Below, in pieces: positions 13,367-45,561 of a stretch of 64,000 nt of DNA (its first letter is position 1; every line of letters starts with the position of its first letter). The stretch comes from a virus. The stretch lies in IMG/VR virus record IMGVR_UViG_3300020057_000029, positions 91,224-155,223 of that record. The stretch is one strand, 5' to 3'. The notes under the pieces are model-generated. The model saw nothing but the letters and a program-made list of their open reading frames with translations, was not told the DNA's origin and did not search any database. The translations under genes and the position numbers were made by a program.

Positions 13367-13542
13367 ACCGACAAGACATGACCTAGAGTTTGCGAGGGCG
13401 TCGGTGCGCAAAACAGTCTTGTAAGAAAAAGAGCTTGCTGATCAAAGGCGCTACAGGAAACACAGGGACAGAGATGGCCTTATCTTTAGGGTATGACCGC
13501 ATCTGGGACTGTGGAAAAATAAGATGGGAGATTTTCTTGTGA
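13356..13542 (+). pseudogene. internally deleted Hef-like endonuclease relic between the intein halves
   Basis: 13411-13542 reads KQSCKKKSLLIKGATGNTGTEMALSLGYDRIWDCGKIRWEIFL*, closely matching the C-termini of the 10962 and 28523 genes; probable old start GTG at 13356 with GAGGA RBS. Confidence 0.85.
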
Positions 13543-13652
13543 AAAAAGTAAAGATAAAAAGTATTAAAAGGTCAAACGTAGAGGTTCCAATGTTGGACTT
13601 TACCGTTGCTGATAACCACAACTACTTTGTGGAGCAGGCGCTTACTCACAAT
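13539..13652 (+). mobile_element. split intein C-half (38 aa)
   Basis: Basic N-terminus, block F DFTVADNHNYF, terminal HN followed by Ser+1. Confidence 0.88.
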
Positions 13653-15005
13653 TCTGAGCATACAAACATGATGTTCGTAGACGAAATCGACGTGGTGGCA
13701 AATCCTCAAGCCTATGAAGAGGCTAAGCTCATTCCTGGTTATGCTAAGGGATTACATCCGGTTACCGTGAAGCTATCTACTCGTAAATTTGCATTTGGAC
13801 TCATGCAGAAGGAACTTGACCTGGCTCCAATATCAGGTGATAAGATTCTTAGGTGGAATCTTTTAGATGTTACGGAGCGTTGCCCTGATAGTCGCCATAG
13901 GCCAAATGAGCCAAAAGAAGACCGGTATGTAGCAAAAGCCTTGCCTCTAAAACAGATGAGTGTAGAAGACTACTCAGATCTACAAGATGTGGAAAAGGAC
14001 AAGTTCGACCTCATTCCGCAAGCCCATGCTGGATGCTCCAGTTGCAAACTCTTGCCGGTATGCAAGACCAGGCTAGCAGCTCGTCCAGCCAATGATGTTG
14101 GCGGCTTGTTTAAGCCCGTAGGCGCTGTGATTAACACTTTTAAGAAGACCGGCCCTGATCGCGCAGAGGCACAGCTTCTTTGCTGGAAGCCATCCACTAA
14201 AGGAATGGTGTACCCTCGCTTTGAGTCCACACTCGATACCGGCAACGTGATCAGTCTTGAAAAAGCCTGGGAAACCCTTGTTGGTGATCCTCCTCATAAA
14301 AAGAAGATTTCAGAAGCCGATCTTCTTTGGAAGATGCAGCAGCTTGGAATTGCATTCTACGCTGGAGTGGACTGGGGTTATACTCACGATTTCGTAATCG
14401 TTGTTTTTGCCATAATCCCTAATGGTGAAATATGGATTGTAGACTGTTATTCAATGGCCGGTCTAGAATTTTCTGACATCTTGGAAATCGCTAAAGACTA
14501 TCGCGATAAGTACCGTATGGATAAATGGTGGTGTGACCAGGCTATGCCTGCGAATATCAAATCTTTTAACAAGAACCATATGAAATCTCCTTCTTTCACC
14601 AAAGATGTTATGGGTGGAATTGAATCTTTGCGTTCTAAGATCTTAGATGGTAACAGCAGGCGTTTGCTTAAGGTTTTTAATACGGAAAACTGTGAAAAAG
14701 TAATTACAGCCTTTCAAAAACACCATTTCAAGCTAGACAGTGCGGGTAACCCTTCTCTTATCCCAGATGATACCCCTGGGGTCGCAGATAGCGCCGATGC
14801 TATGCGTTACGTTGGCCAAAACATGTTTCCTATCCGTGGACCCCAGAAACCCAGTATGGCCGCTGACGCTACTGGGAATACTGCTGTAATGGTTCAGAAT
14901 GTCGAAAATTCCGAGCTGATGAAGCAGGAGCTATTAAACAGGTTAGAGGGAACAGCTTTTAAGGGCGGGACGGGCAAAAAAGGTGGGTTTCATTTTAACT
15001 TCTGA
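13539..15005 (+). CDS. terL: split-intein C-half fused to terminase large subunit C-fragment (Walker B + RNase H-like nuclease)
   Basis: GTG at 13539 with GGGAG RBS; IntC KKVKIKSIKR...LDFTVADNHNYF...THN|S; then MFVDEID, AGVDWGY, DSADAMRY. Confidence 0.88.
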   Translation: MKKVKIKSIKRSNVEVPMLDFTVADNHNYFVEQALTHNSEHTNMMFVDEIDVVANPQAYEEAKLIPGYAKGLHPVTVKLSTRKFAFGLMQKELDLAPISGDKILRWNLLDVTERCPDSRHRPNEPKEDRYVAKALPLKQMSVEDYSDLQDVEKDKFDLIPQAHAGCSSCKLLPVCKTRLAARPANDVGGLFKPVGAVINTFKKTGPDRAEAQLLCWKPSTKGMVYPRFESTLDTGNVISLEKAWETLVGDPPHKKKISEADLLWKMQQLGIAFYAGVDWGYTHDFVIVVFAIIPNGEIWIVDCYSMAGLEFSDILEIAKDYRDKYRMDKWWCDQAMPANIKSFNKNHMKSPSFTKDVMGGIESLRSKILDGNSRRLLKVFNTENCEKVITAFQKHHFKLDSAGNPSLIPDDTPGVADSADAMRYVGQNMFPIRGPQKPSMAADATGNTAVMVQNVENSELMKQELLNRLEGTAFKGGTGKKGGFHFNF

Positions 15006-16027: not shown

Positions 16028-17899
16028 ATGGACAATGACAACAAAACTCCAGACCAAATAGAAGCTGCAATTGTTGCTTTGCAATCTGCTGTAGCCTCAG
16101 TCGATTCTAAAAAGAAGATGTTGTTTACCGTTTCTGATACAGAAGAGGCTACCCTTGCCAAGGGTGGCTATGAAAGCTCTAGCCCCATATCGCCCTTGCT
16201 TGCTGCTATTAAAAGTGCTTCTGGTTCTGCAAGCAGGAAAGCCCCTCGTTTAGCTTTTACTGAAAACCCAGCACCTTCTGACAATTATCTTGGTCTGTTC
16301 AAATCCAAGCGCAGGCTGGTGCCTGATGAGATTTTAAAACAAATTCGCGTAACCGATCACTTGATCGCTGCTATCCTACGTGCTCGCGGCAACATGATGA
16401 GCCTATTTGGCCATCCTCGTAAAAACAGATTTGATATAGGAATGGAAATCGCTATTAAACAGGAGTTTGAAAAAGTCTTTACTCCAGAGCAATTGGCCAA
16501 AGTACGAATGCGTATCAAGAATCTTGAGGCAGTACTCGTCAACTGTGGACACACAGAAGGTCTTGAACAACAAGATAGGACCACATTAGCTGATTTTATA
16601 GATATTCAAGCTCGCAATGGATTGACATTTGGTCGTTTTGCTACTGAGATTATTTATGATCGCGGAGAAGAACCAGGCTCTGATGGTCGTTTTCCATTTT
16701 TCCGGTTTCGCGCTCTAGACGTTGCTACTATTTATCGCGCTGTTCGCAAGGGTGAAATGCTAGGAAACACACTGCGCCTAACCGCAATCAAAGCTCTTCA
16801 GTCCTTGACTGGTGAGAACTTTAAGATTGACTTTGACAGGCTTCAAGAAGACGAATATGCTTGGCTACAGGTAATTGAGGGAACCCCTCGTCAAGCCTTT
16901 ACGCATGATGAGATGATTGTTTACAATCTTTACGATTCTACCGATATCGAACACAATGGCTATCCAGTATCGCCAATGGATACTGCGATCAGTTCTATTA
17001 CTACCCATATTTCTATCGATGCCTATAAAAAGCTCTATTTTCAAAACGGTCGTGCCTCTAAGGGTATGCTTGTGATCAAATCTGATGAAGTAGATCAGGC
17101 TACACTTGACAACATGAAGCTTCAGTTCAACGCTTCTATTAATAGCGTAAGTAATTCTTTCCGTACTCCTATTTTTGGTATTGGAAAAGAAGACCAAGTT
17201 GACTGGTTGGCGATGAATGAGGGCGCTCGTGACGACGACTTCCAGTTCATGTACGATCAGATTGCTCGTAACATTCTTTCTGCTTTCAATATGTCTCCTG
17301 ACGAGCTTCCTGGCTACTCACACCTTTCTCGTGGTACTAACTCGCAGACCCTATCTGAATCAAATAACGAATTCAAGCTTACCGCTGCTCGTGATACTGG
17401 TCTACGTCCTTTAATCTTGAAGTTCCAGACCTTCTTTAACGAAAAGCTTCTTCCTTTGATTGACCCTTTGCTTGCAAAAATTGCAGAGGTTAGGTTCGCT
17501 GGCATTGATGCTCAGTCCAAAGAGCAAGAGTCTACTCGATTACAGCAAGACATGGCTGTACACATGAATTACGACCAGACCTTAAAAGAAGTAGATAAAG
17601 AGCCTATCGGACACACTCTTGGTGGCGAATTCCCTTTTAATGAGCGTTGGCAGATTATTATAGACAAGTACATGAACGTTTCTGAGCTTAGGGCTCAGTT
17701 CTTCAAAGATCCTACTGCTTACGTAGATCCCTTGCTACAATATAAAAGAGATCCCTTTTTTCTACAGAATCTACAATTGTTAGCCCAAGTAAACCCACTT
17801 GCCCTAAAAGCTTTTTATGCGACTAAGCCTTTTGCCCTAGAATTCTTAAAAATGAACATCGAAGACGCCTTAGAAGAAGACGAAAACGTAGGAACCTAA
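16028..17899 (+). CDS. portal protein
   Basis: YFQNGRASKGML, NSFRTPI, DFQFMYDQIARNILSAFNMSPDEL, GLRPL motifs of Twort/SPO1-type portals; position. Confidence 0.88.
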   Translation: MDNDNKTPDQIEAAIVALQSAVASVDSKKKMLFTVSDTEEATLAKGGYESSSPISPLLAAIKSASGSASRKAPRLAFTENPAPSDNYLGLFKSKRRLVPDEILKQIRVTDHLIAAILRARGNMMSLFGHPRKNRFDIGMEIAIKQEFEKVFTPEQLAKVRMRIKNLEAVLVNCGHTEGLEQQDRTTLADFIDIQARNGLTFGRFATEIIYDRGEEPGSDGRFPFFRFRALDVATIYRAVRKGEMLGNTLRLTAIKALQSLTGENFKIDFDRLQEDEYAWLQVIEGTPRQAFTHDEMIVYNLYDSTDIEHNGYPVSPMDTAISSITTHISIDAYKKLYFQNGRASKGMLVIKSDEVDQATLDNMKLQFNASINSVSNSFRTPIFGIGKEDQVDWLAMNEGARDDDFQFMYDQIARNILSAFNMSPDELPGYSHLSRGTNSQTLSESNNEFKLTAARDTGLRPLILKFQTFFNEKLLPLIDPLLAKIAEVRFAGIDAQSKEQESTRLQQDMAVHMNYDQTLKEVDKEPIGHTLGGEFPFNERWQIIIDKYMNVSELRAQFFKDPTAYVDPLLQYKRDPFFLQNLQLLAQVNPLALKAFYATKPFALEFLKMNIEDALEEDENVGT

Positions 17900-23542: not shown

Positions 23543-25561
23543 TTATTTTTTTTCAGACTTTTCCATGGTTTTAGGCCTATCGAACTCTTTTAGTTCGTGA
23601 ACGTGTCTTGGGTGTAATACGGCATCATCGTGTTCATTAATACCAAACTTAACATGTTTTCCAGAAAGGATTTTTCCATGTTGTTTGTTTGGCAAATGAT
23701 GCATTTCGCCGGTTGGTTTTTTGGCAAAATATTCACCACCACGAGAGATCACCTTGCCCGTATGAGGGTGCTCGGAATCGATTTTTTCAGACTTTTCCAT
23801 GGTTTTAGGCTTTTTGTAACATTCCTTATCTTCGCCAGTCATCATTGCATCAGAAAATTTCTTGAGCTCTTTTTCGGCTTCAACGCTTTTTTTCAAAATC
23901 ATAGTTTTGCCAAAAGAGTCTATTTCGCTTTTGGTCATGTTGGGCATTCGCTTCTTCATAAATTCTTGAAACTGTTCACGCTTGTCCCATTTAGAATATT
24001 CTTCTTCTGCGCGAATTAACCACTCGGACTTTGTTAGGTTGGGCTTCATTTGTCTGATGCGCTTCAAATTCTTATGAGCAATTTCTTTGGCTGTATAAAC
24101 GGTCTCGGAAGCAGCGCCATGACGAACCTTCTGGCCCATGTGGGACATTCCCATGCCAGCTTTTAGGCCAGGGCTCATTTTATTACCAGCTACCTTGTCG
24201 GATAGAGGTTTGTTAACATTATCCGTTTTCTTCATACTGCCCTTGCCGAACGGCGAACCGATTGCAGCATTAATTGTCGAAGTGCCGTTCGAGGTAGCGG
24301 TATTGCCTAGGCTCTGAGGAGGAGGAGGAGGCGGTGGTGGTGGCGCATCTACTTTGTGCATTTTTTTGTCGAGATGCTCTTTGGCGAGCGCAGCGCCGTC
24401 TGTTAACGCACCAGGCGAGCTCATTCCAGAACCTGCGGTCATCGCTTTTTCCATCTTTTGTTCGCCAGAATCATTTTTTGGCTGTTTTTGCACATTAGCA
24501 GATGGGTTCATTGCTTTACCCAATAGCTTTTTGCGCTTATCAGCCATTCCGGCCTCAAAACGATCATCTTTACGAGCAGATGTATGAGCGGCTTGTAAGT
24601 GAAGCTTCATGCGGTCAAGATGATGAGCTCCAGCTTTATGATCTTTGGTACCCTGAGAATGCTCAAAATGCATTTTAGCAGCTTCTTCATGATCTTTGGT
24701 AGAAAAACCACGATATTCGTGGATGCGCTGATGACTCATCACGTCTTTGCCTGAGCTAGTGCGACCCATGGTGTGACCAGGATCTCTAAAAGGTGTTTTG
24801 CCAAAGGTCTTTGCGCTGGCCTTTGGGGTGCCAATTGAAGCATTGGGTTTCTCGATACCTGCAGCAGATTTGTCAACTGAAGCTGGAGCTTGTGATGTCA
24901 TTTCTTTTTTCATGGGGGTGATTCCTAGCTTATTAGCATGATGATTCGGGTCTTCTGCCTTTTTTACATCGGCGAAAACATCGGACTTAAGAAGTTCAAT
25001 TTCTGCGTAAGGTACTGTTTTAAAAGACTGTTCTGATTTAAAAAAATCGGCGATATTATCGACTTTTTTAGTTTTTTCGGGCATTTCGGGCATTTTTTCA
25101 GCTATAGCCATTTTGTTACAATGGGACTCTGTTATGGTACATTTACGAGCAATAGATCTTGTAATTGTCATACCTTTTTTATCAAGCTTTGCGCCTTCAA
25201 TAGAGAAACCAACTACATTGTGTTCGTTAATACCTCTTTTCTCAGCATCGTATTGAAAAAGACCGGCTACGTGCAGACCAGACTCTGTATGGGTAAAGAG
25301 CTCACCCATAACGTAAACGTAGGGAACCTTGCATTTGTTCCAAAAATAGCGGTGTCTTTCGTTATCACAGTCTTCTAACTTAAAGATTTTCTTAGCTTTT
25401 AAGATCTTTCCAATAATTTGCATTGGGTAGTCTTTTTTATGCTCCCAATTGAAATTTCCGGTTTTGTCTAACGAGGAGATATCCATTCCTGCTACGGAAA
25501 TGATTTCGCCAGAAGAGTCTATGTTTTCAGAAGCTGCTATTCCGTCAATTAGGGTGGACAT
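23543..25561 (-). CDS. prohead (capsid maturation) protease with long low-complexity C-terminal extension
   Basis: IDGIAASENIDSSGEII, NWEH, GFSIEG; extension carries many [LMF]xK[SA] motifs and a poly-Pro tract. Confidence 0.82.
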   Translation of the reverse strand: MSTLIDGIAASENIDSSGEIISVAGMDISSLDKTGNFNWEHKKDYPMQIIGKILKAKKIFKLEDCDNERHRYFWNKCKVPYVYVMGELFTHTESGLHVAGLFQYDAEKRGINEHNVVGFSIEGAKLDKKGMTITRSIARKCTITESHCNKMAIAEKMPEMPEKTKKVDNIADFFKSEQSFKTVPYAEIELLKSDVFADVKKAEDPNHHANKLGITPMKKEMTSQAPASVDKSAAGIEKPNASIGTPKASAKTFGKTPFRDPGHTMGRTSSGKDVMSHQRIHEYRGFSTKDHEEAAKMHFEHSQGTKDHKAGAHHLDRMKLHLQAAHTSARKDDRFEAGMADKRKKLLGKAMNPSANVQKQPKNDSGEQKMEKAMTAGSGMSSPGALTDGAALAKEHLDKKMHKVDAPPPPPPPPPQSLGNTATSNGTSTINAAIGSPFGKGSMKKTDNVNKPLSDKVAGNKMSPGLKAGMGMSHMGQKVRHGAASETVYTAKEIAHKNLKRIRQMKPNLTKSEWLIRAEEEYSKWDKREQFQEFMKKRMPNMTKSEIDSFGKTMILKKSVEAEKELKKFSDAMMTGEDKECYKKPKTMEKSEKIDSEHPHTGKVISRGGEYFAKKPTGEMHHLPNKQHGKILSGKHVKFGINEHDDAVLHPRHVHELKEFDRPKTMEKSEKK

Positions 25562-26217: not shown

Positions 26218-26946
26218 ATGTATACAGAACAAGATCTTTCAAAAATGTTAGCGGAAGTGGAAAAAGAATTTGCTGGTGCTCTTGCTAAAGCTGAAGAAGA
26301 AAAATCTTCTCTAGCTAAGTCAGAAACTGCAAATGCCGATGCCGCTACCGAAGAGACTGCCAAAGTTGAAGAGAAATCTGCAACGGCGGAAATCGCTCTC
26401 GCTAAAAACGAAGACGAAGACGAAGATAAAGACGATTGCGATTACGACGACGAGGATCATGAAGAAATAGAGAAAATCTATAAGTCCATGTCCAAATCTG
26501 AACGTAAAGCACACTTGAATGCGCTCGGGAAATGTGGAGAAATGTCAATGAAAAAGTCCGAAAAAGACACTTTAGTTGAAATTGAAACCCCTATTGCTGA
26601 CGCTGGTAAAGAAATCGAACTTCTTAAGTCCGAATTTTCGACTAAACTTGCCGCTTCTGAAGCAAAAAGCGAAGAGTTAAAAAAGAATCTAGATGCCGTG
26701 TCAGAATTTTTGACCAGATTGGTTAAGAAAACTGCACCCCAAGGTAAGGGTATCACTAATCTCGACAGTATCGCCAAAAGCGATGTTGGCGCTGATGAAG
26801 AGAAGCCTTTGTCGAAGAGTGAAATTAGCACTCGTCTAGCTAAAAAAGCCGCTGAACCTACTTTGGCCAAGTCGGATAGAGAGGCTATCAATGCTTTCTA
26901 CCTACAAGGCGCAAATATTAACACTGTAAACCACTTACTCAAGTAA
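26218..26946 (+). CDS. capsid scaffolding protein
   Basis: Acidic coiled coil directly before the capsid gene, with about ten LxK[SAN] motifs. Confidence 0.7.
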   Translation: MYTEQDLSKMLAEVEKEFAGALAKAEEEKSSLAKSETANADAATEETAKVEEKSATAEIALAKNEDEDEDKDDCDYDDEDHEEIEKIYKSMSKSERKAHLNALGKCGEMSMKKSEKDTLVEIETPIADAGKEIELLKSEFSTKLAASEAKSEELKKNLDAVSEFLTRLVKKTAPQGKGITNLDSIAKSDVGADEEKPLSKSEISTRLAKKAAEPTLAKSDREAINAFYLQGANINTVNHLLK

Positions 26947-28522: not shown

Positions 28523-30226
28523 ATGAAGGATAAAATATCAGAACTGTATAAAAAAGGTGTGAAAACATCAGATATAGCCATGGTTCTAAGGAAAACGCCT
28601 CAAAGAATTAATCAAGTGCTGATAGAGCTTGGCTTAAAGCAAAAAACGTTTGACTATTCGCCAAAAATAACTGCTATCATTGCTGAAAGCATTCTTGCTT
28701 TTAATAGAGATGGTCTGACCGTAACTGAAATATCAAAAAGGGTTGATCTAACAACCACTGGAATCAGAAATTTTCTTAAAAAACGTAGTATTTCAACAAA
28801 CGCATCCAAAGAAGACAGGTCTAGGCCTTGTGTTGTTTGTAAATTAGTGTTCACTCCGAAACACTCAGATGGGGTGAAAAAAAACAAATACAAGACTTGC
28901 TCTGTCGAATGTCGCTCTAAGCACGCTAGTGAATACAGAACGAAATATACAAAAGATGATATCGATAAGGTTTTAGAGCTAAAAAAGGCCAATACTGCCA
29001 ATGATGAGATTTGCCTGGCAACAGGGGTAAATATAAATAAGATCAAAGAGGTGATCAAAGAAAATGCCTTGTTTTTGGACCCAAAAGTGGCTCAAAAGAA
29101 TGCTTATGAAGCTAAGCTAAAAAAGAATACTCGTTCTATGGAAGAGATGCGAGCTTATTACGGAAAAATAGCCGTATCAGAAGAAAGTCTTGAAAAAACA
29201 AAAACAATTCTTTTGGAAAGGGGTTTTGAATATATAGATGGTTTTGAGGGCAAAAGCAATCCTTTTAAAATCAAATGTCTAGTCTGCAATAATATCAGAA
29301 CTACACATAGGATAAACAATGTGGTCAAAAACGCCTGTATGTTCTGTTCTGGATGTAAAAAAACTTCCAAAGCCGAAATAGAAATTGGGGCATGGGTAAA
29401 CTCTTTAAAGATAAAGGCTGAAAAATTCAAGTTTGAATACCGAAAAGATGGTGGCGAAATAGATGTTTTTGTTCCCCTTGTAAAGGTGGGAATAGAATAC
29501 TGTGGTCTTTATTGGCATAACGAAAATAGCCCAACCTCAAGAGGGGTGGATTATCATTTCAACAAAATGAAAAAGGCTAACAAAGAAGGTATTCGCCTAA
29601 TAACCATTTTCGAAGACGAATGGCTCAATAAAAAAGATCAAATTAAAGGATTTTTACGATCTGTTCTTAATAAAAATGAAATAAGGCTTTTTGCCAGAAA
29701 AACAGATTTGAGAGAGGTGCCTAAAAAAGAGGCCTCTCTTTTCTTAGAGGAAAATCATATCCAGGGTTCTTCTCAAATCGAATCGGCTTTTGGCCTTTAT
29801 TACAACGAAGAGCTTGTTGGTATTGTAACTGGCAACAAACATCACAGACAGGGAATGAAAAATCAATTCATACTGAATCGATTGGCCTTTAAAACAAACG
29901 TAAGTGTGGCTGGTGGTTCGTCTCGGCTTCTTAAGGCGCTAATTGGTTATGCTAAAAAGAATGGCTATTTAAAACTAGTCTCGTGGTCAGACAATAGGTG
30001 GTCCGAAGGTAATGTTTACGAAAAACTAGGGTTTGTATTGGAAGAAACCCTTGGCCCAGACTATTCTTACGTAGTTGGCCAAAAAAGAATCTCCAAGCAA
30101 TCTTGTACCAAGGAAAACTTGCTCAAAAAAGGAGCCATTGGTAACACAGAAAAAGAAATGGCCCTCAGTTTAGGATATAGCAGAATATGGGATTGTGGCA
30201 AAAAACGCTGGACCTTCGCCTTGTAG
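28523..30226 (+). CDS. Hef-like homing endonuclease, second copy (HTH/Zn-finger N-terminus)
   Basis: EIDVF...GIEYCGLYWH; C-terminal half highly similar to the 10962 gene. Confidence 0.8.
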   Translation: MKDKISELYKKGVKTSDIAMVLRKTPQRINQVLIELGLKQKTFDYSPKITAIIAESILAFNRDGLTVTEISKRVDLTTTGIRNFLKKRSISTNASKEDRSRPCVVCKLVFTPKHSDGVKKNKYKTCSVECRSKHASEYRTKYTKDDIDKVLELKKANTANDEICLATGVNINKIKEVIKENALFLDPKVAQKNAYEAKLKKNTRSMEEMRAYYGKIAVSEESLEKTKTILLERGFEYIDGFEGKSNPFKIKCLVCNNIRTTHRINNVVKNACMFCSGCKKTSKAEIEIGAWVNSLKIKAEKFKFEYRKDGGEIDVFVPLVKVGIEYCGLYWHNENSPTSRGVDYHFNKMKKANKEGIRLITIFEDEWLNKKDQIKGFLRSVLNKNEIRLFARKTDLREVPKKEASLFLEENHIQGSSQIESAFGLYYNEELVGIVTGNKHHRQGMKNQFILNRLAFKTNVSVAGGSSRLLKALIGYAKKNGYLKLVSWSDNRWSEGNVYEKLGFVLEETLGPDYSYVVGQKRISKQSCTKENLLKKGAIGNTEKEMALSLGYSRIWDCGKKRWTFAL

Positions 30227-33324: not shown

Positions 33325-34370
33325 TGGGTTTAAGTAAATTTTTGCTACAATCTATGTCAGAGCACAAGGATAAGGTCAAAGGGCCTCATTTCCTGTTTTC
33401 TGCAGAGAACCCTCGTTTTCCGCAAAAAACTACGCTAAGCCACGAAGACGTTGTAAAACATCTAAAAGGTGCGGGTTTTGATGCGCACGAAGTGAATGGT
33501 CATTATGGATCTCCCGAGCGCAGCATTGCTGTTTATGGCGTGAGTAAGGTTCAGGGAGAAGAGCTTCACGACATGGCTTCCCGTTTAGGTCAAGATAGCT
33601 CTATTTATTCCAATGGTAAACAGCACGAAATGCGCTTTCATCATGGAGAAAATGCTGGCAAAGCCCATTATGGAGAAGGCACTAAGTGGCATTTGCAAAA
33701 GCCAGCAGACTATTTTACCACCCTTCCTGGCGGACATCACCATTTTACCCATGATTTCAAATTTGACACCTTACACCCAGCGGGCCAGTTACACAATGTT
33801 CACGAGATGCTTGGTAAGCAAGTTTCTGCAGAGCACAAAACCGCTCAAGAAGCTGTTGCTTCGCCTTTAAACCAAAAACTTGAGAGTGATCATGACACCA
33901 ATATGAAAGGTATCAAGGATGGTCTTAAGGACGACATAAAGAAAAACGAACAAGAGCGTATAAAACTTGTTCATTTTTCCTCTCAAGGCGATCTAAAACA
34001 TATTGACCCTAATTTCAAACAAACTGGGGTAGACGCTGGAAAAAAGGGCAGAGATACTTTTCATCCTCACTCATTCTATTACGTAGAGGGCACTGAACCT
34101 GAACAGATCGTTGTGAGTCAAAGCCGTCACAAATATAAGACCAGCATAAACCCTGCTGAAAAACCTGTATACGATCTCGGTCATGATCCAAAAGGTGTGG
34201 TCGATGAAGCAATTAAGGAAAACCAGGGCGTTTTAAACATGGACATGGTTCATGAAAAATTAAAAGATGCTGGGTTTCACGGATTTAGAAACTCAAAACA
34301 CCCTAGTCTATCTAATGTGGTCGGAATGTATCATCCTTTGGCAGTGGAGCATCATGAACAAATCAGATAA
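33324..34370 (+). CDS. two-domain putative head cargo (DUF3293-like N-domain + possible ART-fold domain)
   Basis: FSAENP...GHYGSPERS...LGQDS; then KLVHFS...SFYY...GFHGF. Confidence 0.5.
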   Translation: MGLSKFLLQSMSEHKDKVKGPHFLFSAENPRFPQKTTLSHEDVVKHLKGAGFDAHEVNGHYGSPERSIAVYGVSKVQGEELHDMASRLGQDSSIYSNGKQHEMRFHHGENAGKAHYGEGTKWHLQKPADYFTTLPGGHHHFTHDFKFDTLHPAGQLHNVHEMLGKQVSAEHKTAQEAVASPLNQKLESDHDTNMKGIKDGLKDDIKKNEQERIKLVHFSSQGDLKHIDPNFKQTGVDAGKKGRDTFHPHSFYYVEGTEPEQIVVSQSRHKYKTSINPAEKPVYDLGHDPKGVVDEAIKENQGVLNMDMVHEKLKDAGFHGFRNSKHPSLSNVVGMYHPLAVEHHEQIR

Positions 34371-35442
34371 AACAGAAAATTTGGGTCAGGGCGTACACGA
34401 AGGGTATCAGCAACGCGCTAAACAGGGCGGCGATGTTCTGTTCCATGTAAAGCTTAAGGGTAGAACTTATCTTACGAACGACATACCTCTTCACATGTCC
34501 TTGAAGGTGTTTTCCAACAAGGATGAAATGGACCTAGCTGAAATTAAAGCCAAGGTTAAAGAGTTTGACATCAAGGCTCCAGATCCTAAAAATCTTAAAT
34601 TTAAAACAACTATTTTTACCTCAGAAAATGATGGTAAAGAATATTTCATGCTTTTGTGTGAAGGTTGTCCTGATAATTATGAAAAATTCTACCATTCTTT
34701 TGGCAACAAAGGAACTCGTTATAAAAATTTCATGTCCCATGTGACCATTGACAAGCTATTGTACGATGCGATCAATGAAGACGGCGTAAAAGCTGAAGAG
34801 ATCGAATTTAGCCCTCTCACTGTTGAGCATGGTGCTGACAATACTGTGCATATTTTTGAAGACAGTCTAGAAAAGTCTGAAGAGCTTCTTGAAAAAGGCA
34901 GTATGAAGCATTTAGCTTCTGCTTTGATTATGAGCACGGCCCTTGCTGGCGGATCTCACACTGCTCATGCTCCTAAAACACCATCTGCAATCCATCAAGA
35001 ACCTGAATACACACCAGCAAGAATGCTTGCTAGTATTTCTGATGTAGAAAGCTCTGGCGGAAAAGATACTAAACACGAAGCTCTTCCTGAGGGCGGGATA
35101 CATCGTGGTGAAAAAGCTTATGGAAAATACGGACTAACACCTGTTGTTATACGCGAAACAATACATATGCACAAAGACCTTGCGACAAAACATAAAAAAG
35201 CCTTAAACCTGCGTGGACAAGACATGTCTAACTATATGCAAGACAACCCTGAATTAGAAGACACGATTGCTCAGAAGCATTTACAAAGACTTGAACATCA
35301 TTTTGGTCCAAAACCAGACGTTCTGGGCTATGCGTGGTTACAGGGAATTACTGGGACAAACAAGGCTCTGAAAACAAAAGAAGATATTAAAAGTCATTGG
35401 CATGTCAAAAAAATTAGAGATGCCTATCTAAGGGGTAAGTAA
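34354..35442 (+). CDS. 2H phosphodiesterase (Acb1-like) fused to lysozyme/lytic transglycosylase-like domain
   Basis: HMSL (34492) and HVTI (34738) 82 aa apart; ISDVESSGG...AYGKYGL; start re-called to 34354 (GGAG RBS). Confidence 0.65.
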   Translation: MNKSDKTENLGQGVHEGYQQRAKQGGDVLFHVKLKGRTYLTNDIPLHMSLKVFSNKDEMDLAEIKAKVKEFDIKAPDPKNLKFKTTIFTSENDGKEYFMLLCEGCPDNYEKFYHSFGNKGTRYKNFMSHVTIDKLLYDAINEDGVKAEEIEFSPLTVEHGADNTVHIFEDSLEKSEELLEKGSMKHLASALIMSTALAGGSHTAHAPKTPSAIHQEPEYTPARMLASISDVESSGGKDTKHEALPEGGIHRGEKAYGKYGLTPVVIRETIHMHKDLATKHKKALNLRGQDMSNYMQDNPELEDTIAQKHLQRLEHHFGPKPDVLGYAWLQGITGTNKALKTKEDIKSHWHVKKIRDAYLRGK

Positions 35443-37746: not shown

Positions 37747-38880
37747 ATGTCTTTCGGCAACTCCTTTCTTAAAAAAGCGTTAGGCGAAGATTTTTTTGAA
37801 TCTTTGCAAAAAGTTGAGCTTTATAAGCAAGGCACTCGCACGACCGTAGATCCAGAGGAAATTGCCACGGCCCTTCAGATTGTACCAAGAACCTTGATGG
37901 CGTTTTTGGTGAACACTCTTTCTCCTTTAAAGGTAGGAGACAACAAAAGAATTCAGCTCCCTCTTCAAGAATCTGGCGTATTCCTCAATGCCACCAAGCT
38001 GGAGCGCGACGTTTATATTGGCAATATTGAGCAAGCCGGTAAGATTGTGACTGAGTATAAATTCAGATCCATTCCAGGGATTGGACTTATTATCATGTCA
38101 GCTTACGAGCTCTATGATATTAATAAGTTGATAGAGCCTCCAAAAGTGGAGGAAGACGTTGCCTCCAAAGTGCAACATATGATCAATGAACGTCTTGCTA
38201 TACATGATATAGTTGGTCAGGTGGTCGATAAGACTATGGCTGAACGTGAAGCGCTAAACAAGCTCATGCTCATGAAACTGACCAATGAGCTCAATGCTAC
38301 TAGGGAAGAATTAGAACGTGAAAGAGTAAGGCTTGCTGGCTGTGCCGTTGCTGCTCATGGTGGTGTAAAGCCTGGAGAACTCCAACCTGGTGACTACGGA
38401 CACTCTGCATCTTTGGACGATGTTCTACATCTTCGTGAAAAAAACGAGAAGTTTAAAAAAGACATTGCTAACGTGGCCAGAGTTTTTTCGGAAGATCCTG
38501 CTTCTAAAAGCGATGAGTATTTACGCGGCTTGGCCAACGGAATTGCTGTTGTTGATGCTACCATAAATGATAAGGAACCAGAATTCGTGGATGCACCCAA
38601 AAAAGGCTCTCAAAAACTAAAAAACTTTGTAGAGCGCCGAAAACAGCCTCAAGAATTTTCTATTCAAATGGCCAAAGGTGAGCAAGTTGATTGCCCTGAT
38701 TGTGGCAAAAACATCTTTGATGGCACTGTATTTTCTGGCTGTATTTGCTTTGGCGATGATCGCGAGCGCAAGGTTTTTGTTAGGAAAAGTGATACCGGAA
38801 TCAATGTGCGTTTCTCTAAAGGCTTTGATCCTGAAAATATCGAAATGCTTCTAGATATTCTTAGGAGAAAACATGGATAA
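37747..38880 (+). CDS. hypothetical protein with coiled coil and C-terminal Zn ribbon
   Basis: CPDCG...CIC; LKKA, MAKG. Confidence 0.7.
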   Translation: MSFGNSFLKKALGEDFFESLQKVELYKQGTRTTVDPEEIATALQIVPRTLMAFLVNTLSPLKVGDNKRIQLPLQESGVFLNATKLERDVYIGNIEQAGKIVTEYKFRSIPGIGLIIMSAYELYDINKLIEPPKVEEDVASKVQHMINERLAIHDIVGQVVDKTMAEREALNKLMLMKLTNELNATREELERERVRLAGCAVAAHGGVKPGELQPGDYGHSASLDDVLHLREKNEKFKKDIANVARVFSEDPASKSDEYLRGLANGIAVVDATINDKEPEFVDAPKKGSQKLKNFVERRKQPQEFSIQMAKGEQVDCPDCGKNIFDGTVFSGCICFGDDRERKVFVRKSDTGINVRFSKGFDPENIEMLLDILRRKHG

Positions 38881-40549
38881 TATATTTTTAGCAATGGACG
38901 CAGATAACGCAGGAAGAATGGTCGGAAGAGCCGTTCTTGCTAACGATGTTGCTGCTCTTACCGAAGTAAGCTCCAGAATCGATCTGGGACAAGAAATCAT
39001 CGCCAGGTGGGTTCAAGAACAGGGCGGAAAAAAGATTTCTGCTGGAGGAGATGAGTTCACAGCCCAGATGCCGCCTGGTTCTATTGAAACGATTGAAGAA
39101 CTTCGGAAGGACTATCAATTTGCTACGAATCTAACAATGACCGTTGGCGTAGGCAAAGATTTGTCCCAAGCTGGCAAGTCTCTTATGGCCGGAAAACTAC
39201 GTGGTAAAAATATCGTAGTGATATTCGATGAAACCGTTGATTCTGAATTGCAGTCCGCACATCTACATGCTGGAGACGGAACTGGATCGGAAGAAGAAAA
39301 CAAGCTAGACGAAGCGTATCTTAGCGATGGTCAACAAAACGAGCAGGGAGAGGACGCCGCCAATGATGGTCAGGGCGAATTCTCTGATGGTAAAAATCAT
39401 GATAGCGAAGCCAATCGTGAGGCAAAGGGCGATGATGTTGGGCCTGGTTCTACTGAAGAAAGCCCAGGAGAGGGCGTTGAGCCTACCGCTACAGATCAAC
39501 AAGCTGAACAAAATGATCAACAAGCACAATTTAACACAGATGGTGAAGAGCCTGGTCCAACCGACCCAAAAGCTCAATCCAATCCCAAAACCGAAGGTGC
39601 GGAAAAGCTAGAGGAAAAATCTATGAACGATAAATCTAACGGAAACAGTGTAAAACCAAAAAACAAGGAGATCGTAAATGAAGGCTCTAAAGAAAAAGAT
39701 CCAAAAGCAGGTCAAGAAAATGTTGACAAGCTTAAAGAAAAAATTGATGAAGCCAGCCCCGAAAGCCAAAGCCAAGAAAAAGATGTAATGGAAAATATTG
39801 ACGATGCAGATCTTGCAACTGGCCATGCCGATGGAAAAGGGGTGGATGACAAAGACTCCGACCAAACTCCTGGTGACATGGGCCTAGGCGATGAAGCAGA
39901 AGCTGGGGCTGAAGAAGGTGTTGATCCTCAAGATCCTAGTGCTTCTGAAGAAGAAGGCGAAGAAGATCTTAATCCAGATCAGCTTCCTGGCGAAGACAAA
40001 GAAGACCCTGACTACAAAGAAGTTCTTGGTGACGCGATTGCCTCTGAACAAGAAAACATTCAAAAAGAAAAAGTCGTACAGATGGTAGCTGAAGCCCTAG
40101 AAGTCTTCAAAAGTCAGCGCCATATTTTGGAACGAGCTAAAGAACAAGCCCCTGAGCTCTATAACGGCTCGATCAAAATGCTTCGCGCAATGATTGAAAT
40201 GTCAAAATTGCTTGGTTTTGGCGATGGGCTAGAAGATCCTGAACACGATGCTCAGCAAAATGGCGCTGACTCCCTGTTTGGCAATGACGAAGACATGCCT
40301 GCCGATGACGAAGATATGCTTGCCGATGACGAAGATATGCTTGCCGATGACAAACCTTTCTTGGATGGTTCTGATTCTGAAGAAGGTGCGGAAGATAAAG
40401 AGAAGCCTGCTAGCAAACCTGAATTTCCTCCTAAGAAAGATGGTAAATCTGCTAAACCCGACGTTTCACCAGACGCTAAAGGAAAACCTAGTTTCCCCCC
40501 TAAAAAACCAGAAGGAAAACCTGCTGGAAAAAAGCCAGCGGGGCAATAG
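38873..40549 (+). CDS. mCpol (minimal Cas10/GGDD-type) nucleotide cyclase domain protein with long acidic tail
   Basis: FLAMDADNAG, ND, ISAGGDEF, TVGVG, AGKLRGKN within the first ~118 aa. Confidence 0.75.
   Translation: MDNIFLAMDADNAGRMVGRAVLANDVAALTEVSSRIDLGQEIIARWVQEQGGKKISAGGDEFTAQMPPGSIETIEELRKDYQFATNLTMTVGVGKDLSQAGKSLMAGKLRGKNIVVIFDETVDSELQSAHLHAGDGTGSEEENKLDEAYLSDGQQNEQGEDAANDGQGEFSDGKNHDSEANREAKGDDVGPGSTEESPGEGVEPTATDQQAEQNDQQAQFNTDGEEPGPTDPKAQSNPKTEGAEKLEEKSMNDKSNGNSVKPKNKEIVNEGSKEKDPKAGQENVDKLKEKIDEASPESQSQEKDVMENIDDADLATGHADGKGVDDKDSDQTPGDMGLGDEAEAGAEEGVDPQDPSASEEEGEEDLNPDQLPGEDKEDPDYKEVLGDAIASEQENIQKEKVVQMVAEALEVFKSQRHILERAKEQAPELYNGSIKMLRAMIEMSKLLGFGDGLEDPEHDAQQNGADSLFGNDEDMPADDEDMLADDEDMLADDKPFLDGSDSEEGAEDKEKPASKPEFPPKKDGKSAKPDVSPDAKGKPSFPPKKPEGKPAGKKPAGQ
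40284..40351 (+). repeat. 21-bp coding tandem repeat x3 (DDEDM[PL]A)
   Basis: gatgacgaagatatgcttgcc units. Confidence 0.85.
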
Positions 40550-40562
40550 GTAGCCCCATTGG
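40513..40562 (+). other. programmed -1 ribosomal frameshift signal
   Basis: AGGA SD-like, in-phase A_AAA_AAG at 40528-40534, stem GGGGC/GCCCC 5 nt downstream; -1 frame open to 40761. Confidence 0.72.
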
Positions 40563-40744
40563 AAAACTACCGACCAAGCAAACCACCTCTCACGTAGCGC
40601 GTGAAACGTTGCCACCTGGAGCGATTAACGCTAAAGGGCAGCAAAAGGTTATCGACCCTGTTACTGGTAAAACCAGATTTATAGACAGGAAAGCCGGTGT
40701 AGTAATGAGTTCCACCGGAGTCCCTGTAAAATCGGGAGGCGTGA

Positions 40745-41497
40745 ATGGCTCTCAAAATTAACTTAGATCTTGATAAGATAGCGGATCATTTCAAGGAGCT
40801 AGCCTACGAAGTAAAACAAGATTTAGAAAAAGGCGTTGGCAGCTTAGCTGCAATGACCCATGCTAGAGTTGCTGAGATAGCCAGTAGCGAATTGAATTCT
40901 TCTAGAAAAGAGTTTCAAGAATCTCTTGGTTTTGAAGAGATATCTCCTGGCGTTTGGGTTGTAAGCGTAGATGAAAAAGGTCTATGGGTAGAAGAAGGTA
41001 TTAAGCCTAATACGGATATGAAGGAAGGCCTTCTACGAGAAGGCGCAAAAACATCGAAGGATGGCTATAAGTACAAGTCGATTCCTTTTGATCACGGCAA
41101 AGCTCCTTCGCAGATGACACCCTATGCTAAAACGCTAGTAAGTCAGATCCGATATGTTTTAAAAAAAGAAGGTATTTCTTTTAAGAAGATTGAGAATGGT
41201 CCTAATGGGAATCCTAGGCTTGGTAAATTACACAAGCTAGACATTGATTCTATGCCACCAACCTCTCGGGCAAACACTGGAGCTCTACAGGGCCTAACGA
41301 TCTATCAAAGCAAAAATGCGGCTGGCAATGTTAGACGAGACATAATGACTTTTAGAACGGTTAGTGACGGTCCTAAGGGTCAAGGTAAATGGATTCACCC
41401 TGGAATGCAGGCTAAGAAGTTTTTAGACAGAGCAGCAGAATGGGCTTTAAAAGAATGGGAAGAAAAAATTCTTCCAGAGATATTAAAGAAATATTAA
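40745..41497 (+). CDS. neck/tail completion protein (HK97 gp10-like)
   Basis: MTFRTVSD...WIHPG motif; position. Confidence 0.65.
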   Translation: MALKINLDLDKIADHFKELAYEVKQDLEKGVGSLAAMTHARVAEIASSELNSSRKEFQESLGFEEISPGVWVVSVDEKGLWVEEGIKPNTDMKEGLLREGAKTSKDGYKYKSIPFDHGKAPSQMTPYAKTLVSQIRYVLKKEGISFKKIENGPNGNPRLGKLHKLDIDSMPPTSRANTGALQGLTIYQSKNAAGNVRRDIMTFRTVSDGPKGQGKWIHPGMQAKKFLDRAAEWALKEWEEKILPEILKKY

Positions 41498-42601: not shown

Positions 42602-43108
42602 ATGATGAAACACTACACCGCAAAACAAGTAGCTCTAGAAGTCTTGAAAAAAGCAGACGAATGTCTTAAGAAGTCTGAAATGCTCAAGAAAGAGCATGTT
42701 GAAAAAGACGCCACTCCTCCAAACGGTGTTAGAGCCCAAATAGCTCCTGAAAAGAATCCTAAAGAAAAGAAGGAAGAAAAAGGAACTGATCCTACTGGGA
42801 TGGCGGACTATGATGACAAGCGTTTAAAAAAATCCGAAGGTTTTTCTGGTTTAGCTAAGTTTTTAGAAGATAAAAAATCAAAACGTATGTCTAAAGGCGA
42901 AACCGGACATGAAAAAGGAATAAATACTTCTACTGATCCTTCGCAAAAAAGCAAGGTAATGATGGGAACCAGTAAAGCTGGATCTAGCTTACCAGGCGCT
43001 TCAAACAGCCCTGCTAAAAAAATAGCAGACGAAAATGAGGCTAAAGGCAAACACAAACAGGTGCTTGGCGAAATGAAGCAAATGCCTAAACCAAAGTTGC
43101 CGGTGTAG
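42602..43108 (+). CDS. putative head-internal low-complexity protein
   Basis: LKKA, LKKS x2, MSKG motifs. Confidence 0.6.
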   Translation: MMKHYTAKQVALEVLKKADECLKKSEMLKKEHVEKDATPPNGVRAQIAPEKNPKEKKEEKGTDPTGMADYDDKRLKKSEGFSGLAKFLEDKKSKRMSKGETGHEKGINTSTDPSQKSKVMMGTSKAGSSLPGASNSPAKKIADENEAKGKHKQVLGEMKQMPKPKLPV

Positions 43109-43404: not shown

Positions 43405-45561
43405 ATGGCTCAAAGATTAGTAACTAGTTTCGTAAATACAAATGTACCTGGCGCTTACCCCAATCAAAGCGTTATTAGCAAGCCAGTAGGCTTTGCTTCT
43501 TCTGGTAACATCGTTATCATTGGAGAAGCTGATGGTGGTGACAACTTCGCTAACGTGGATCTGAAGAAGAATTTCTTTGGTCCTAGTCAAGCGGCAAAAG
43601 TTGCCCAACAGTACATCCGTGGATCTCTTGTAGACGCCATGAATGCACTTGCTGGACCTTCTGCTGATCCAGAAATTGTTGGATCTGCAAATCGTATTTA
43701 TATCTTAAAAACCAACTCTGGAAGCCAGGCTTCTGCCTTGGTTGATACCGATTATGGCACACTGAAGGATAAAAACTGGGGCTTGGATGGTAATAAATAC
43801 AATTTCAAAGTAACCCAAGTGGCAGCAGAGGCCGCTCCAGAAATTTCTGGTATTACAATCGTTACTTTTGGAGCCACCTTGAACGGTGCTTCTTTCAGTC
43901 TCCGCCAAAATGGTGGTGCTGCTGTTGTAATTGCTCTTAGCGGAATCGCTGGTGACCATGCGGACCAGGCCACTTTGATCATTGAACTTAACAGTTTGCT
44001 TCCTATTGGTGTCACTGCCTCTGCTGGCGCTGCTATTAATAGTATCAAGCTTGCTATGGCCGTAGATGCTGCTGCTAACCGTAAGGGTTGGGCTAAATCT
44101 CTTGAGCTTATCGATTCCACCCCAGGCGATCTCGCTGCTCTTGGACACGATGAAAACTTAATCGTTTCCGCTCAAGAAGCTGAAATTGAACTTTCCATTG
44201 CTCGCGCCGATACGAATCTAAGCGAAGTATGGGATATCGATGCTGAAGTTGCCTTTCAAATTGGATATCTTGGCACAACCGCTACTATGACCATAAATCA
44301 ATCGGCTAAGACCCTAACCACTACCGTAACAGGTGGTGCTGGTAGTAACTTGAGCTTAAGTCTGGCGAACTTTGCAACCCTTGGAAATTTGTCTGCTTTC
44401 ATTGCTACTCAACCTGGATACTCTGCTGCTATTCCGGCTGCATCATTGCAATTGGCACCTTCTTCCTTGGACGCTGTTACTGCAATCGGTATCGGCGCAA
44501 GTGTTGCTGGTGACATGCCTGGACGTGTAAAACGCGGTCTCTATGATTTCAAAGTATCTGTTGGTCAATCTCGCGCTCTTGCTTTTACTGCAATTGCCCA
44601 AGCTGGCCTGCCTGATGCTTCTGCTACCGCCTACTTAGCAGGTGGTCTAAAGGGCGCAACTACGGCTGCTCAAGTTGCCGCTGCTATCGCAAAGCTTTCT
44701 GGTCTATCTGTGAACATTATTGTTCCCCTGTTTTCCCGCGACGCTAGTGCCGATATCGCTGACGCTTTAACTGACAGTGCTTCAACCTATACAATTGATG
44801 CTATTCACGCTCTTGTGAAAACTCATTGCTTGACCTATTCAACCCCTAAACTTAAGAAACATCGCTCTGCAGTGCTTTCTTTCTGGGGCACCTTTGCTCA
44901 GGCCCAACAAAAAGCTCAACAGTTGGCCCAATACCGTTGTGCCATGACCATGCAACGTGCTACTCAAGTTAGCTCTACTACAAACCAAAGTGAAGTTTTC
45001 TTGCCCTGGATGAATGCGGTAATCGCAGCTGGAATGCAAGCTGGTGGTTTTTATAAAGCTATTGTCAATAAGCTTGCTAACGTGATTAGCTTTGAAGATC
45101 CTGCTGGATTTGATTCTGGTGACCCAGACGATAACAGCACTGCACTCGACGCTGGCCTGATGTTCTTGACTCAAGAAGACAATGATGGCCCTCGTTGGGT
45201 TTCTGACCAAACCACCTATGGTTTTGATACGAACTTTGTATACAACAGCTTCCAAGCGGTATACTTGTCCGATTCTCTAACCTTAGACCTTGCCTCTAGC
45301 TTTCAAAAAGCTTTTACTGGCAAAAACGTAGCAGATATCGATGCAGGTGCCGCTCGCGGATTCTTGCACCAGAAGATGGCTGAATACAAGCGTCTAAAAA
45401 TGATTGCTTCCAGTGTTGATGCTCCCTTGGGCTTCAAAAACGAAAATGTTGTAGTTGCCCCCCCAGAACTCGATATCGCTGTTGAAGTAAAACTCGCTAC
45501 TGCGATTTACTTTATACCAATTGATGTGAGTTTCTCGCAAGTAATTCAGACATCGGCTTAA
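43405..45561 (+). CDS. contractile tail sheath protein
   Basis: PGAY, IIGEADGG, NWG, DQTTY, FIPI; 718 aa; AGGAG RBS. Confidence 0.9.
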   Translation: MAQRLVTSFVNTNVPGAYPNQSVISKPVGFASSGNIVIIGEADGGDNFANVDLKKNFFGPSQAAKVAQQYIRGSLVDAMNALAGPSADPEIVGSANRIYILKTNSGSQASALVDTDYGTLKDKNWGLDGNKYNFKVTQVAAEAAPEISGITIVTFGATLNGASFSLRQNGGAAVVIALSGIAGDHADQATLIIELNSLLPIGVTASAGAAINSIKLAMAVDAAANRKGWAKSLELIDSTPGDLAALGHDENLIVSAQEAEIELSIARADTNLSEVWDIDAEVAFQIGYLGTTATMTINQSAKTLTTTVTGGAGSNLSLSLANFATLGNLSAFIATQPGYSAAIPAASLQLAPSSLDAVTAIGIGASVAGDMPGRVKRGLYDFKVSVGQSRALAFTAIAQAGLPDASATAYLAGGLKGATTAAQVAAAIAKLSGLSVNIIVPLFSRDASADIADALTDSASTYTIDAIHALVKTHCLTYSTPKLKKHRSAVLSFWGTFAQAQQKAQQLAQYRCAMTMQRATQVSSTTNQSEVFLPWMNAVIAAGMQAGGFYKAIVNKLANVISFEDPAGFDSGDPDDNSTALDAGLMFLTQEDNDGPRWVSDQTTYGFDTNFVYNSFQAVYLSDSLTLDLASSFQKAFTGKNVADIDAGAARGFLHQKMAEYKRLKMIASSVDAPLGFKNENVVVAPPELDIAVEVKLATAIYFIPIDVSFSQVIQTSA

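Follow-up and report, generated by a model that had tools for sequence, protein, structure and literature searches.

A predicted mCpol nucleotide cyclase on an acidic, probably frameshift-extended carrier in the neck module of large Mx1-like myoviruses

Introduction

Why would a phage keep a nucleotide cyclase of the kind used in bacterial immunity among its head and neck genes? The question is raised by a gene located at positions 38873 to 40549 of a 64,000-nucleotide (nt) stretch of viral DNA (hereafter the window), which corresponds to positions 91,224 to 155,223 of the IMG/VR record IMGVR_UViG_3300020057_000029. The complete record comprises 155,223 bp (CheckV completeness 96%), and the virus is a large myovirus related to Myxococcus phage Mx1. 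An earlier reading made from the letters alone (the sequence-only reading) took the gene product for a phage-encoded mCpol cyclase. The mCpol synthases of the Panoptes system produce 2',3'-c-di-AMP and related dinucleotides (type I) or cA3 (type II) (PMC12657218, PMC12657230, PMC13577387).

Identity of the N-terminal domain

On the strength of profile searches and a structural model, residues 1-150 of the encoded protein almost certainly belong, as true members, to the mCpol (minimal CRISPR polymerase, Panoptes OptS-like) family. The relevant parts of the gene are the following.

38873..40549, + strand: 0-frame open reading frame (ORF) of 558 amino acids (aa), with mCpol domain, acidic linker, helix block and tail; stop TAG at 40547-40549
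38873..39322, + strand: N-terminal domain, aa 1-150, with a palm core (aa 5-118) and two family-specific helices (aa 120-148)
38897..38905, + strand: D9-A-D11, first metal-binding motif; D9 aligns with KpOptS Asp6
39044..39058, + strand: G58-G59-D60-E61-F62, hairpin motif; D60 aligns with KpOptS Asp57

The Pfam mCpol model (PF18182) matched residues 5-118 over its entire length (profile positions 1-114 of 114) with 37.5 bits and an E-value of 3.4e-9, the gathering cut-off being 26.4 bits. The score was 41.7 bits with the N-terminal 126 aa alone, and a six-frame search of the whole genome found a single place, the mCpol ORF (41.2 bits). The next Pfam match on the protein was the Cas10 palm2 model, below threshold. 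The GGDEF model PF00990 gave no match to the 558-aa protein at E<=1 and none in the 155-kb genome at E<=0.1, in a search that was positive in 9 control genomes. The sequence-only reading had seen the mCpol pattern in the first ~118 aa and had proposed a comparison of the mCpol and GGDEF hidden Markov model (HMM) scores as a check; this comparison comes out on the side of mCpol.

A profile made from 18 N-terminal domains of the window and related loci (profile A2) aligned end to end with the solved Panoptes synthases, with E-values of 1.3e-15 for 9NWN and 5.7e-15 for 9MNR (9PD0 being the same KpOptS). Because the family profile matches solved mCpol structures at E 1e-15, the resemblance is far beyond chance. 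The AlphaFold2 model of the domain, calculated from the A2 alignment, has a predicted local distance difference test score (pLDDT) of 95.3. When this model was compared with the PDB using Foldseek, the six best hits were all OptS/mCpol chains, with template modelling (TM) scores on the target of 0.86-0.88, root-mean-square deviations of 1.4-2.4 A and 27% identity. Throughout the family the 120-aa palm core is extended by a pair of helices (aa 120-148) that terminate in the conserved K-L-x-E-A-Y-L.

The protein might instead be a canonical GGDEF diguanylate cyclase making cyclic di-GMP. Residues 58-62 indeed spell G-G-D-E-F, and GGDEF domains are the next-best structural neighbours, found along with class III cyclases at TM scores of ~0.5-0.57 (Cas10 palms at ~0.5 or below). 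We regard this explanation as very improbable and have rejected it: besides the missing PF00990 match, the best diguanylate cyclase against the A2 profile is DosC with E 0.9 versus 1e-15, the TM scores are ~0.55 versus 0.87, and F62 is present in 11% of the family. Diguanylate cyclases carry, after strand 1, a guanine-binding helix of the form F-K-x-x-N-D...G-H...G-D. Here D11 is followed by N-A-G-R-M-V-G-R-A-V-L-A-N-D, which aligns with the mCpol helix. The sequence-only reading had noted the missing helix, as our own by-eye reading does, and its view that this is not a canonical diguanylate cyclase agrees with the HMM, profile-versus-structure and fold comparisons alike.

Conservation of the active site and expected activity

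The active-site acids of KpOptS are Asp6 and Asp57 (PMC12657218), with S30 as a base-contacting residue that shapes the product (PMC12657218, PMC12657230). In the phage protein S33 aligns to S30 in the profile alignment, and both catalytic Asp motifs (D9-x-D11 and G58-G59-D60-E61) are intact, as the sequence-only reading had stated; it had also placed the GGDEF correctly, at 39044-39058 (residues 58-62).

Residue conservation was counted over 177 family representatives. The first motif is nearly invariant (D9 in 175/177, D11 in 176/177), and so is the hairpin (G59 in 177/177, D60 in 176/177, E61 in 163/177). K108 and G111 are present in all 177 and S33 in 161. The K-x-R-G-K-N phosphate motif and the base-contacting Ser are thus kept together with the active site, at 90-100% across divergent members. 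Since the catalytic residues are near-invariant, the domain is, judged by conservation, a bona fide mCpol under selection for catalysis, with all known catalytic features kept. By the same counts the literal GGDEF is incidental, a coincidence of a sublineage, because F62 occurs in only 19 of the 177 and the family consensus is GGDEG. The motif begins with a perfect GGDE in the phage protein, versus A-A-D-G in KpOptS.

Taken with the ~115-aa palm fold, the catalytic Asp pair and the base-contacting Ser that it shares with Panoptes OptS/mCpol (KpOptS 9MNR, 9PD0; mCpol 9NWN), this conservation makes it likely that the enzyme is active. By analogy, it would be a nucleotide cyclase working as a homodimer like OptS. 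Constitutive activity is to be expected because the palm, like that of OptS, carries no regulatory domain. Since the Ser that contacts the base is retained, the product would probably be adenylate-based, namely a cyclic di- or oligo-adenylate.

The acidic carrier

Three further parts of the protein follow the mCpol domain.

39323..39997, + strand: acidic low-complexity linker, aa 151-375 (225 aa); net charge -46, 29% D+E, no Cys
39998..40228, + strand: conserved three-helix block, aa 376-452; present in 145/177 relatives
40229..40546, + strand: C-terminal tail, aa 453-558; acidic D/E-M-L-A-D-D repeats, then basic F-P-P-K-K / P-x-G-K

The whole protein has an isoelectric point (pI) of 4.2, a net charge of -76 and no Cys at all. 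This fits the sequence-only description of ~440 aa of acidic disorder with one helical block, which lies at aa ~376-452. In the family alignment four parts are conserved, namely the N-terminal domain, a short G-D-M-G-L segment, the helix block and the extreme C-terminus; variable acidic linkers separate them, and family members have a median net charge of -54. About half of the relatives have 2-7 copies of H-x-H-T-D-D-C-x-Y-C in the linker, and at least one CxxC is found in 83/177 members. Tandem units of this kind occur in P0002, P0003, P0007, P0010, P0012, P0026, P0031, P0033 and P0034 (alignment A1, columns ~330-540) and, from their sequence, look like metal-binding knuckles.

A probable frameshift site and a 75-aa extension

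Three homologues have an extra C-terminal segment that matches a small ORF lying in another frame beyond the stop of the window copy. The following elements surround this stop.

40512..40516, + strand: weak Shine-Dalgarno (SD)-like AAGGA, 11 nt 5' of the slippery heptamer
40528..40534, + strand: slippery heptamer A_AAA_AAG in -1 register; 0-frame codons GGA AAA AAG; 12 nt before TAG
40535..40562, + strand: hairpin 3' of the heptamer; core GGGGC/GCCCC at 40540-40557, UAG stop in the loop; -15.9 kcal/mol, z -3.1
40534..40761, + strand: -1 frame extension, 75 codons + TAA; pI 10.7; extension HMM E 1e-36

We consider it very probable, from the arrangement and conservation of these elements, that a programmed -1 frameshift with the form of the dnaX cassette gives two protein lengths. 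A fraction of ribosomes would probably bypass the 0-frame stop and add a conserved basic tail of 75 aa, the predicted frameshift product being 629 aa long. The extension peptide is encoded downstream of mCpol in 19 of 22 loci and is 47-68% identical between loci. It lies in the -1 frame in 13 of the 22, and 12 of these 13 have an in-register heptamer a few codons before the stop (C_CCA_AAG, C_CCA_AAA, A_AAA_AAG or A_AAA_AAA), for which the estimated chance occurrence is ~1 in 512 per codon. An SD-like word stands 9-15 nt upstream of the heptamer in 8 of the 10 -1 loci compared, in five of the ten as GGAGG or GAGGG at 9-13 nt, and a hairpin begins within 7 nt 3' of the heptamer in all ten, in most of them at a distance of 5-7 nt. 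For most loci of the -1 class, the first start codon in the frame of the extension comes only after the conserved beginning of the peptide (I-G-K-L-P-T-K-x-T-T-x-H-V-A-R). A sequencing error as the source of the frame change was ruled out, since the same arrangement is found with different heptamers in 13 independent loci. An Rfam search at the recoding site found no matching model.

In other relatives the extension is fused in frame (4/22 loci, L003, L006, L007 and L010, and 19/177 representatives) or stands at +1 (2/22 loci). The +1 type was also found in all four of the loci added because their proteins have P-Q-Q or P-Q-L at the end, and the stretch is left uncalled by gene callers. The +1 loci share an invariant CCCCA-CAR-CWS-TRA-GCC at the junction and have AGGAGG, GGAGGG or GGGGG exactly 23 nt before the stop. 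Their sequence would allow either of two mechanisms, tRNA-Pro slipping by -2 or a +1 shift at the stop. In the +1 subclade (L001, L020, L023-L026) the 0-frame product ends A-A-P-Q-E-G-A-A-x-x-P-Q-Q-stop, and the extension is at +1 in 6/6.

The window shares with E. coli dnaX (tau/gamma) an identical A_AAA_AAG, an SD-like element ~10 nt upstream, a hairpin ~5 nt downstream and, as predicted, two protein lengths per gene. Unlike in dnaX, where the shift truncates, it would lengthen the phage protein by 75 aa; the SD-like AAGGA of the window is weak, and the phage relatives also use C_CCA_AAG or C_CCA_AAA, an in-frame fusion or the +1/-2 arrangement.

The C-terminal module was modelled with AlphaFold2 on the natural in-frame relative L010. 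In this model the three-helix block (pLDDT ~90) is followed by a disordered spacer, after which the extension folds into a small beta-hairpin unit (pLDDT up to 92) that does not touch the helix block. No informative fold match for this module was found in BFVD or the PDB.

Position of the gene and distribution of the family

The mCpol gene lies in the following surroundings.

9174-10946: GroEL-like chaperonin
13524-15005: terminase
16028-17899: portal
23543-25561, - strand: prohead-protease homologue, 36% identical to the N-terminus of the Mx1 protease
26218-26946, + strand: scaffold homologue, 242 aa
26978-28363: major capsid protein, 54% identical to that of Myxococcus phage Mx1
37747..38880, + strand: conserved upstream neighbour g37747, 377 aa, with a Cys-rich ribbon-like C-terminal end; order kept in 20/21 loci
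40745..41497, + strand: conserved downstream neighbour g40745, 250 aa; its start overlaps the end of the extension
43405-45561: tail sheath; a tube is also encoded

With terminase, portal, major capsid protein, sheath and tube around it, the gene has a late, virion-related context; it sits between the head genes and the sheath, in the head-completion/neck module. The stop of g37747 overlaps the mCpol start (ATGGATAA), and start/stop overlaps couple the mCpol gene to both neighbours. Promoter- or terminator-like sites inside this block are no commoner than in shuffled sequence, and the GC content of the gene is the same as that of its surroundings. The mCpol gene would accordingly be read as transcribed together with the late structural genes. 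For g37747 no family match was found, and an ESM Atlas search was empty. The g40745 protein matches phrog_16819 (unknown function) in PHROGs, and a weak HK97-gp10-like lead in the ESM Atlas makes a neck protein of that type possible, as a lead only. Apart from phrog_16819, PHROGs and PADLOC gave nothing for the mCpol protein and its two neighbours.

With hardly an exception, 21 related viral loci have the order g37747, mCpol, g40745, g41499, sheath. We found 38 close homologues, with N-terminal domains 54-72% identical and on contigs of up to 172 kb; a library of 1.8 billion representatives yielded 457 clusters at E<=1e-30. Among the best 150 clusters nearly all are long proteins with the mCpol domain at the N-terminus. 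On this comparative evidence the mCpol gene is a syntenic core gene in the neck module of a clade of large Mx1-like myoviruses of roughly 155-172 kb. In 22 relatives the protein has an extra N-terminal segment that does not come from fusion to the upstream gene, and about 20 of these segments contain no Pfam domain. One representative is a tandem double mCpol (P0108), and another has an N-terminal GNAT domain (PF00583, 39 bits; P0010).

Such a position raises the possibility of a morphogenetic protein that serves the head-tail junction as a chaperone or assembly factor. Its two isoforms, in a proportion given by the frameshift, would build or measure a structure, and its palm domain would bind or hydrolyse a nucleotide for the sole purpose of driving or timing assembly, without a signal molecule playing a part. 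The fixed place between neck genes in the 21 loci would suit it, as would the scaffold-like appearance of the long disordered acidic segment with its helix block. Short and long forms made by frameshifting are a hallmark of phage assembly chaperones: as in lambda gpG/gpGT, a conserved late-gene frameshift would yield one product with and one without a C-terminal extension, the two-product outcome being kept although the recoding type varies between relatives. Unlike gpG/gpGT, the mCpol gene has its place among the neck genes, upstream of the sheath, and codes for an enzyme domain; neither sequence nor fold is similar, and the gene is not between tube and tape measure, the place of G/GT-type chaperones. 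A purely structural role would moreover not need the complete cyclase active site that the 177 members keep, and Mx1, the nearest cultured relative, assembles without an mCpol gene. The failure of our genome searches to find a sensor or effector (see below) is a point in favour of morphogenesis. On balance we consider this explanation unlikely.

Three other ORFs of the window may be mentioned here. The ORF that directly follows the capsid gene, at 28523-30226 (+), resembles homing/HNH endonucleases (phrog_3339, E 2e-90) and is Mom/GNAT-like in its C-terminal part. A second ORF, CapR + Mom-like, follows the GroEL-like chaperonin at 10962-12395 (+). The third, g42602 at 42602-43108 (+), lies between the terminator-like gene and the sheath; its product, 168 aa long, lysine-rich and of low complexity, is poorly conserved and occurs in only 3/21 loci.

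A prohead-protease-type motif in some relatives

Late structural-region genes can encode packaged enzymes that are processed by the prohead protease, such as T4 Alt and the internal proteins. We scored the motif [LIMVF]-x-K|[SGNA]-[ED]. No protein of the genome carries it more densely than the scaffold homologue, with 9 copies in 242 aa; further copies occur in the protease homologue (7), g42602 (4), g34267 (3) and g37747 (2). From this distribution it is probably the cleavage motif of the prohead protease. In the mCpol family the motif is enriched (140 observed versus 81+-9 in shuffles), and in 22/177 members a copy directly adjoins the end of the mCpol domain, behind its terminal E-A-Y-L helix (E-A-Y-L-E-K|S-E and similar). 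This suggests, at the level of motifs, that in some lineages the mCpol enzyme is cut from its carrier inside the prohead. The location of the gene and this scaffold-type boundary motif are what the family has in common with T4 Alt and the internal proteins. Unlike these, the window copy has no such site, and no N-terminal targeting sequence was recognised.

Search for sensors, effectors and erasers

The sequence-only reading had found no transmembrane (TM-segment) or CARF effector next to the gene. The adjacent genes are indeed conserved structural-module genes, and in the 21-locus comparison none of the mCpol neighbours has a transmembrane segment. Within the limits of the SAVED, Cap15-type, GGDEF and 2H models, the absence of an effector holds genome-wide, as a statement on sequence matches; the 2H domain (PF13563) had no match in the genome. 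One protein, g34267 (34267-35442 +, 391 aa), has H-M-S-L and H-V-T-I 82 aa apart, a 2H-phosphoesterase-like spacing, and two L-E-K|S/G sites. An Acb1-like 2H phosphodiesterase is a possible identity, to which Pfam, the genome-wide PF13563 search and a PDB sequence search, all empty, lend no support.

These searches bear on the idea that the gene is the remnant of a captured host Panoptes system, carried as a moron or defence cargo. Its attraction is that mCpol is otherwise known only from cellular defence systems (PMC12657218). We rejected it as scarcely credible: the neighbourhood and the SAVED and Cap15-type genome searches show no effector gene, and the position in the structural operon is fixed across hundreds of clusters. 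The family also has its own added helices, carrier and recoding signal, and the window gene does not differ in GC content from its surroundings. The phage protein differs from Panoptes OptS in being encoded by a core phage gene of the virion module, where a 2TM-beta, CARF-TM or SAVED partner was not found, and in having two post-palm helices, a 400-aa acidic carrier with a helix block and a recoded C-terminal extension.

Another explanation is an unpackaged signalling enzyme acting late inside the cell, where its cyclic nucleotide would control the programme of the phage (lysis timing, superinfection exclusion) or host physiology and where the carrier would localise it. Mx1, which has no mCpol gene, does have a different palm cyclase in its head module. 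This protein, WNM70324.1 (L022:9174-9905), is a 243-aa GGDEF-type cyclase (PF00990, 38 bits; N-G-G-D-E-F), encoded between the 1239-aa prohead protease and the capsid gene of Mx1, and is a second, unrelated palm cyclase in the late genes of this phage group. It resembles the phage mCpol in being a palm-domain nucleotide cyclase among late head genes; it differs in belonging to another family (BLASTP against the window protein E 0.03), in its place between protease and major capsid protein, and in having neither carrier nor frameshift. Because Mx1 carries this cyclase there, Mx1-like phages repeatedly keep nucleotide cyclases among their late genes, which favours late signalling, as do the lack of protease sites in the window copy and the co-transcription with late genes suggested by the gene overlaps. 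A phage-encoded receptor for such a signal was not found in the SAVED and Cap15-type genome searches, and the conserved recoded anchor with the boundary protease site of the 22 relatives would fit a particle-associated protein better. This second use of the enzyme also appears improbable to us.

Proposed function

Our best overall explanation, to which we give roughly even credence, is an active mCpol of the virion module that is anchored by its carrier and serves counter-defence. In this explanation the helix block and the frameshift extension would form a carrier or anchor that fixes a set copy number to the virion or to an assembly structure. Because the carrier would fix the copies there, the enzyme would work either out of the particle as it enters or in the infected cell at a late stage. 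The nucleotide supplied could keep guard-type effectors (Panoptes 2TM-beta, CARF-TM) silenced, or could jam other nucleotide-sensing immunity. Judged from gene context and motifs, association of the protein with the virion is possible, somewhat short of an even balance, and counter-defence, to us the likeliest of the possible purposes, is put forward tentatively. The fully specified version, in which a particle-associated mCpol on a frameshift-controlled anchor, freed by the protease in some lineages, supplies a guard-monitored decoy nucleotide or a jamming analogue, we consider doubtful.

Several observations weigh against this explanation. The mCpol protein of the window carries 0 copies of the protease-type motif, and the idea of a capsid cargo is for that reason without direct support for the window copy. 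Helix block and extension resemble no known virion-targeting domain in BFVD or the PDB. They are also not a shared targeting module, since HMMs of both find no second copy anywhere in the 155-kb genome. Covariation in the 3' hairpin is weak across loci, with an RNAalifold consensus of only 3 pairs. On the side of immunity, the SAVED and Cap15-type searches of the 96%-complete genome, both made without a positive control, gave no match, and no sponge or Pfam-detectable phosphodiesterase was found in the genome. Finally, no cultured phage with the gene was found: tblastn with the whole protein and with the N-terminal domain against 50,697 phage records gave none at E<=1.

Significance

The domain family is known; the phage-borne, carrier-fused and recoded form in a structural operon is not described in the literature searched. 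Phage-encoded mCpol is likewise not described there, including the three Panoptes papers and a jumbo-phage survey. So far mCpol has been studied only as the decoy-nucleotide synthase of a bacterial guard system. Here it turns up, active site intact, as a core late gene that hundreds of related large phages have in common. The recoding site would add a well-conserved phage frameshift beyond the tail-chaperone paradigm, with three interchangeable solutions (-1, +1/-2 and fused) that would give the same two products.

If the enzyme is active, bacterial viruses would write immune-type nucleotide signals, besides erasing or sponging them. If the counter-defence explanation is true, the phage could deploy sponges or phosphodiesterases and, thanks to the decoy nucleotide, would not set off the guard. 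The protein would then be a first on two counts, as a viral counter-move to inhibitory-signal (guard) immunity and as a cyclic-nucleotide synthase borne on the virion.

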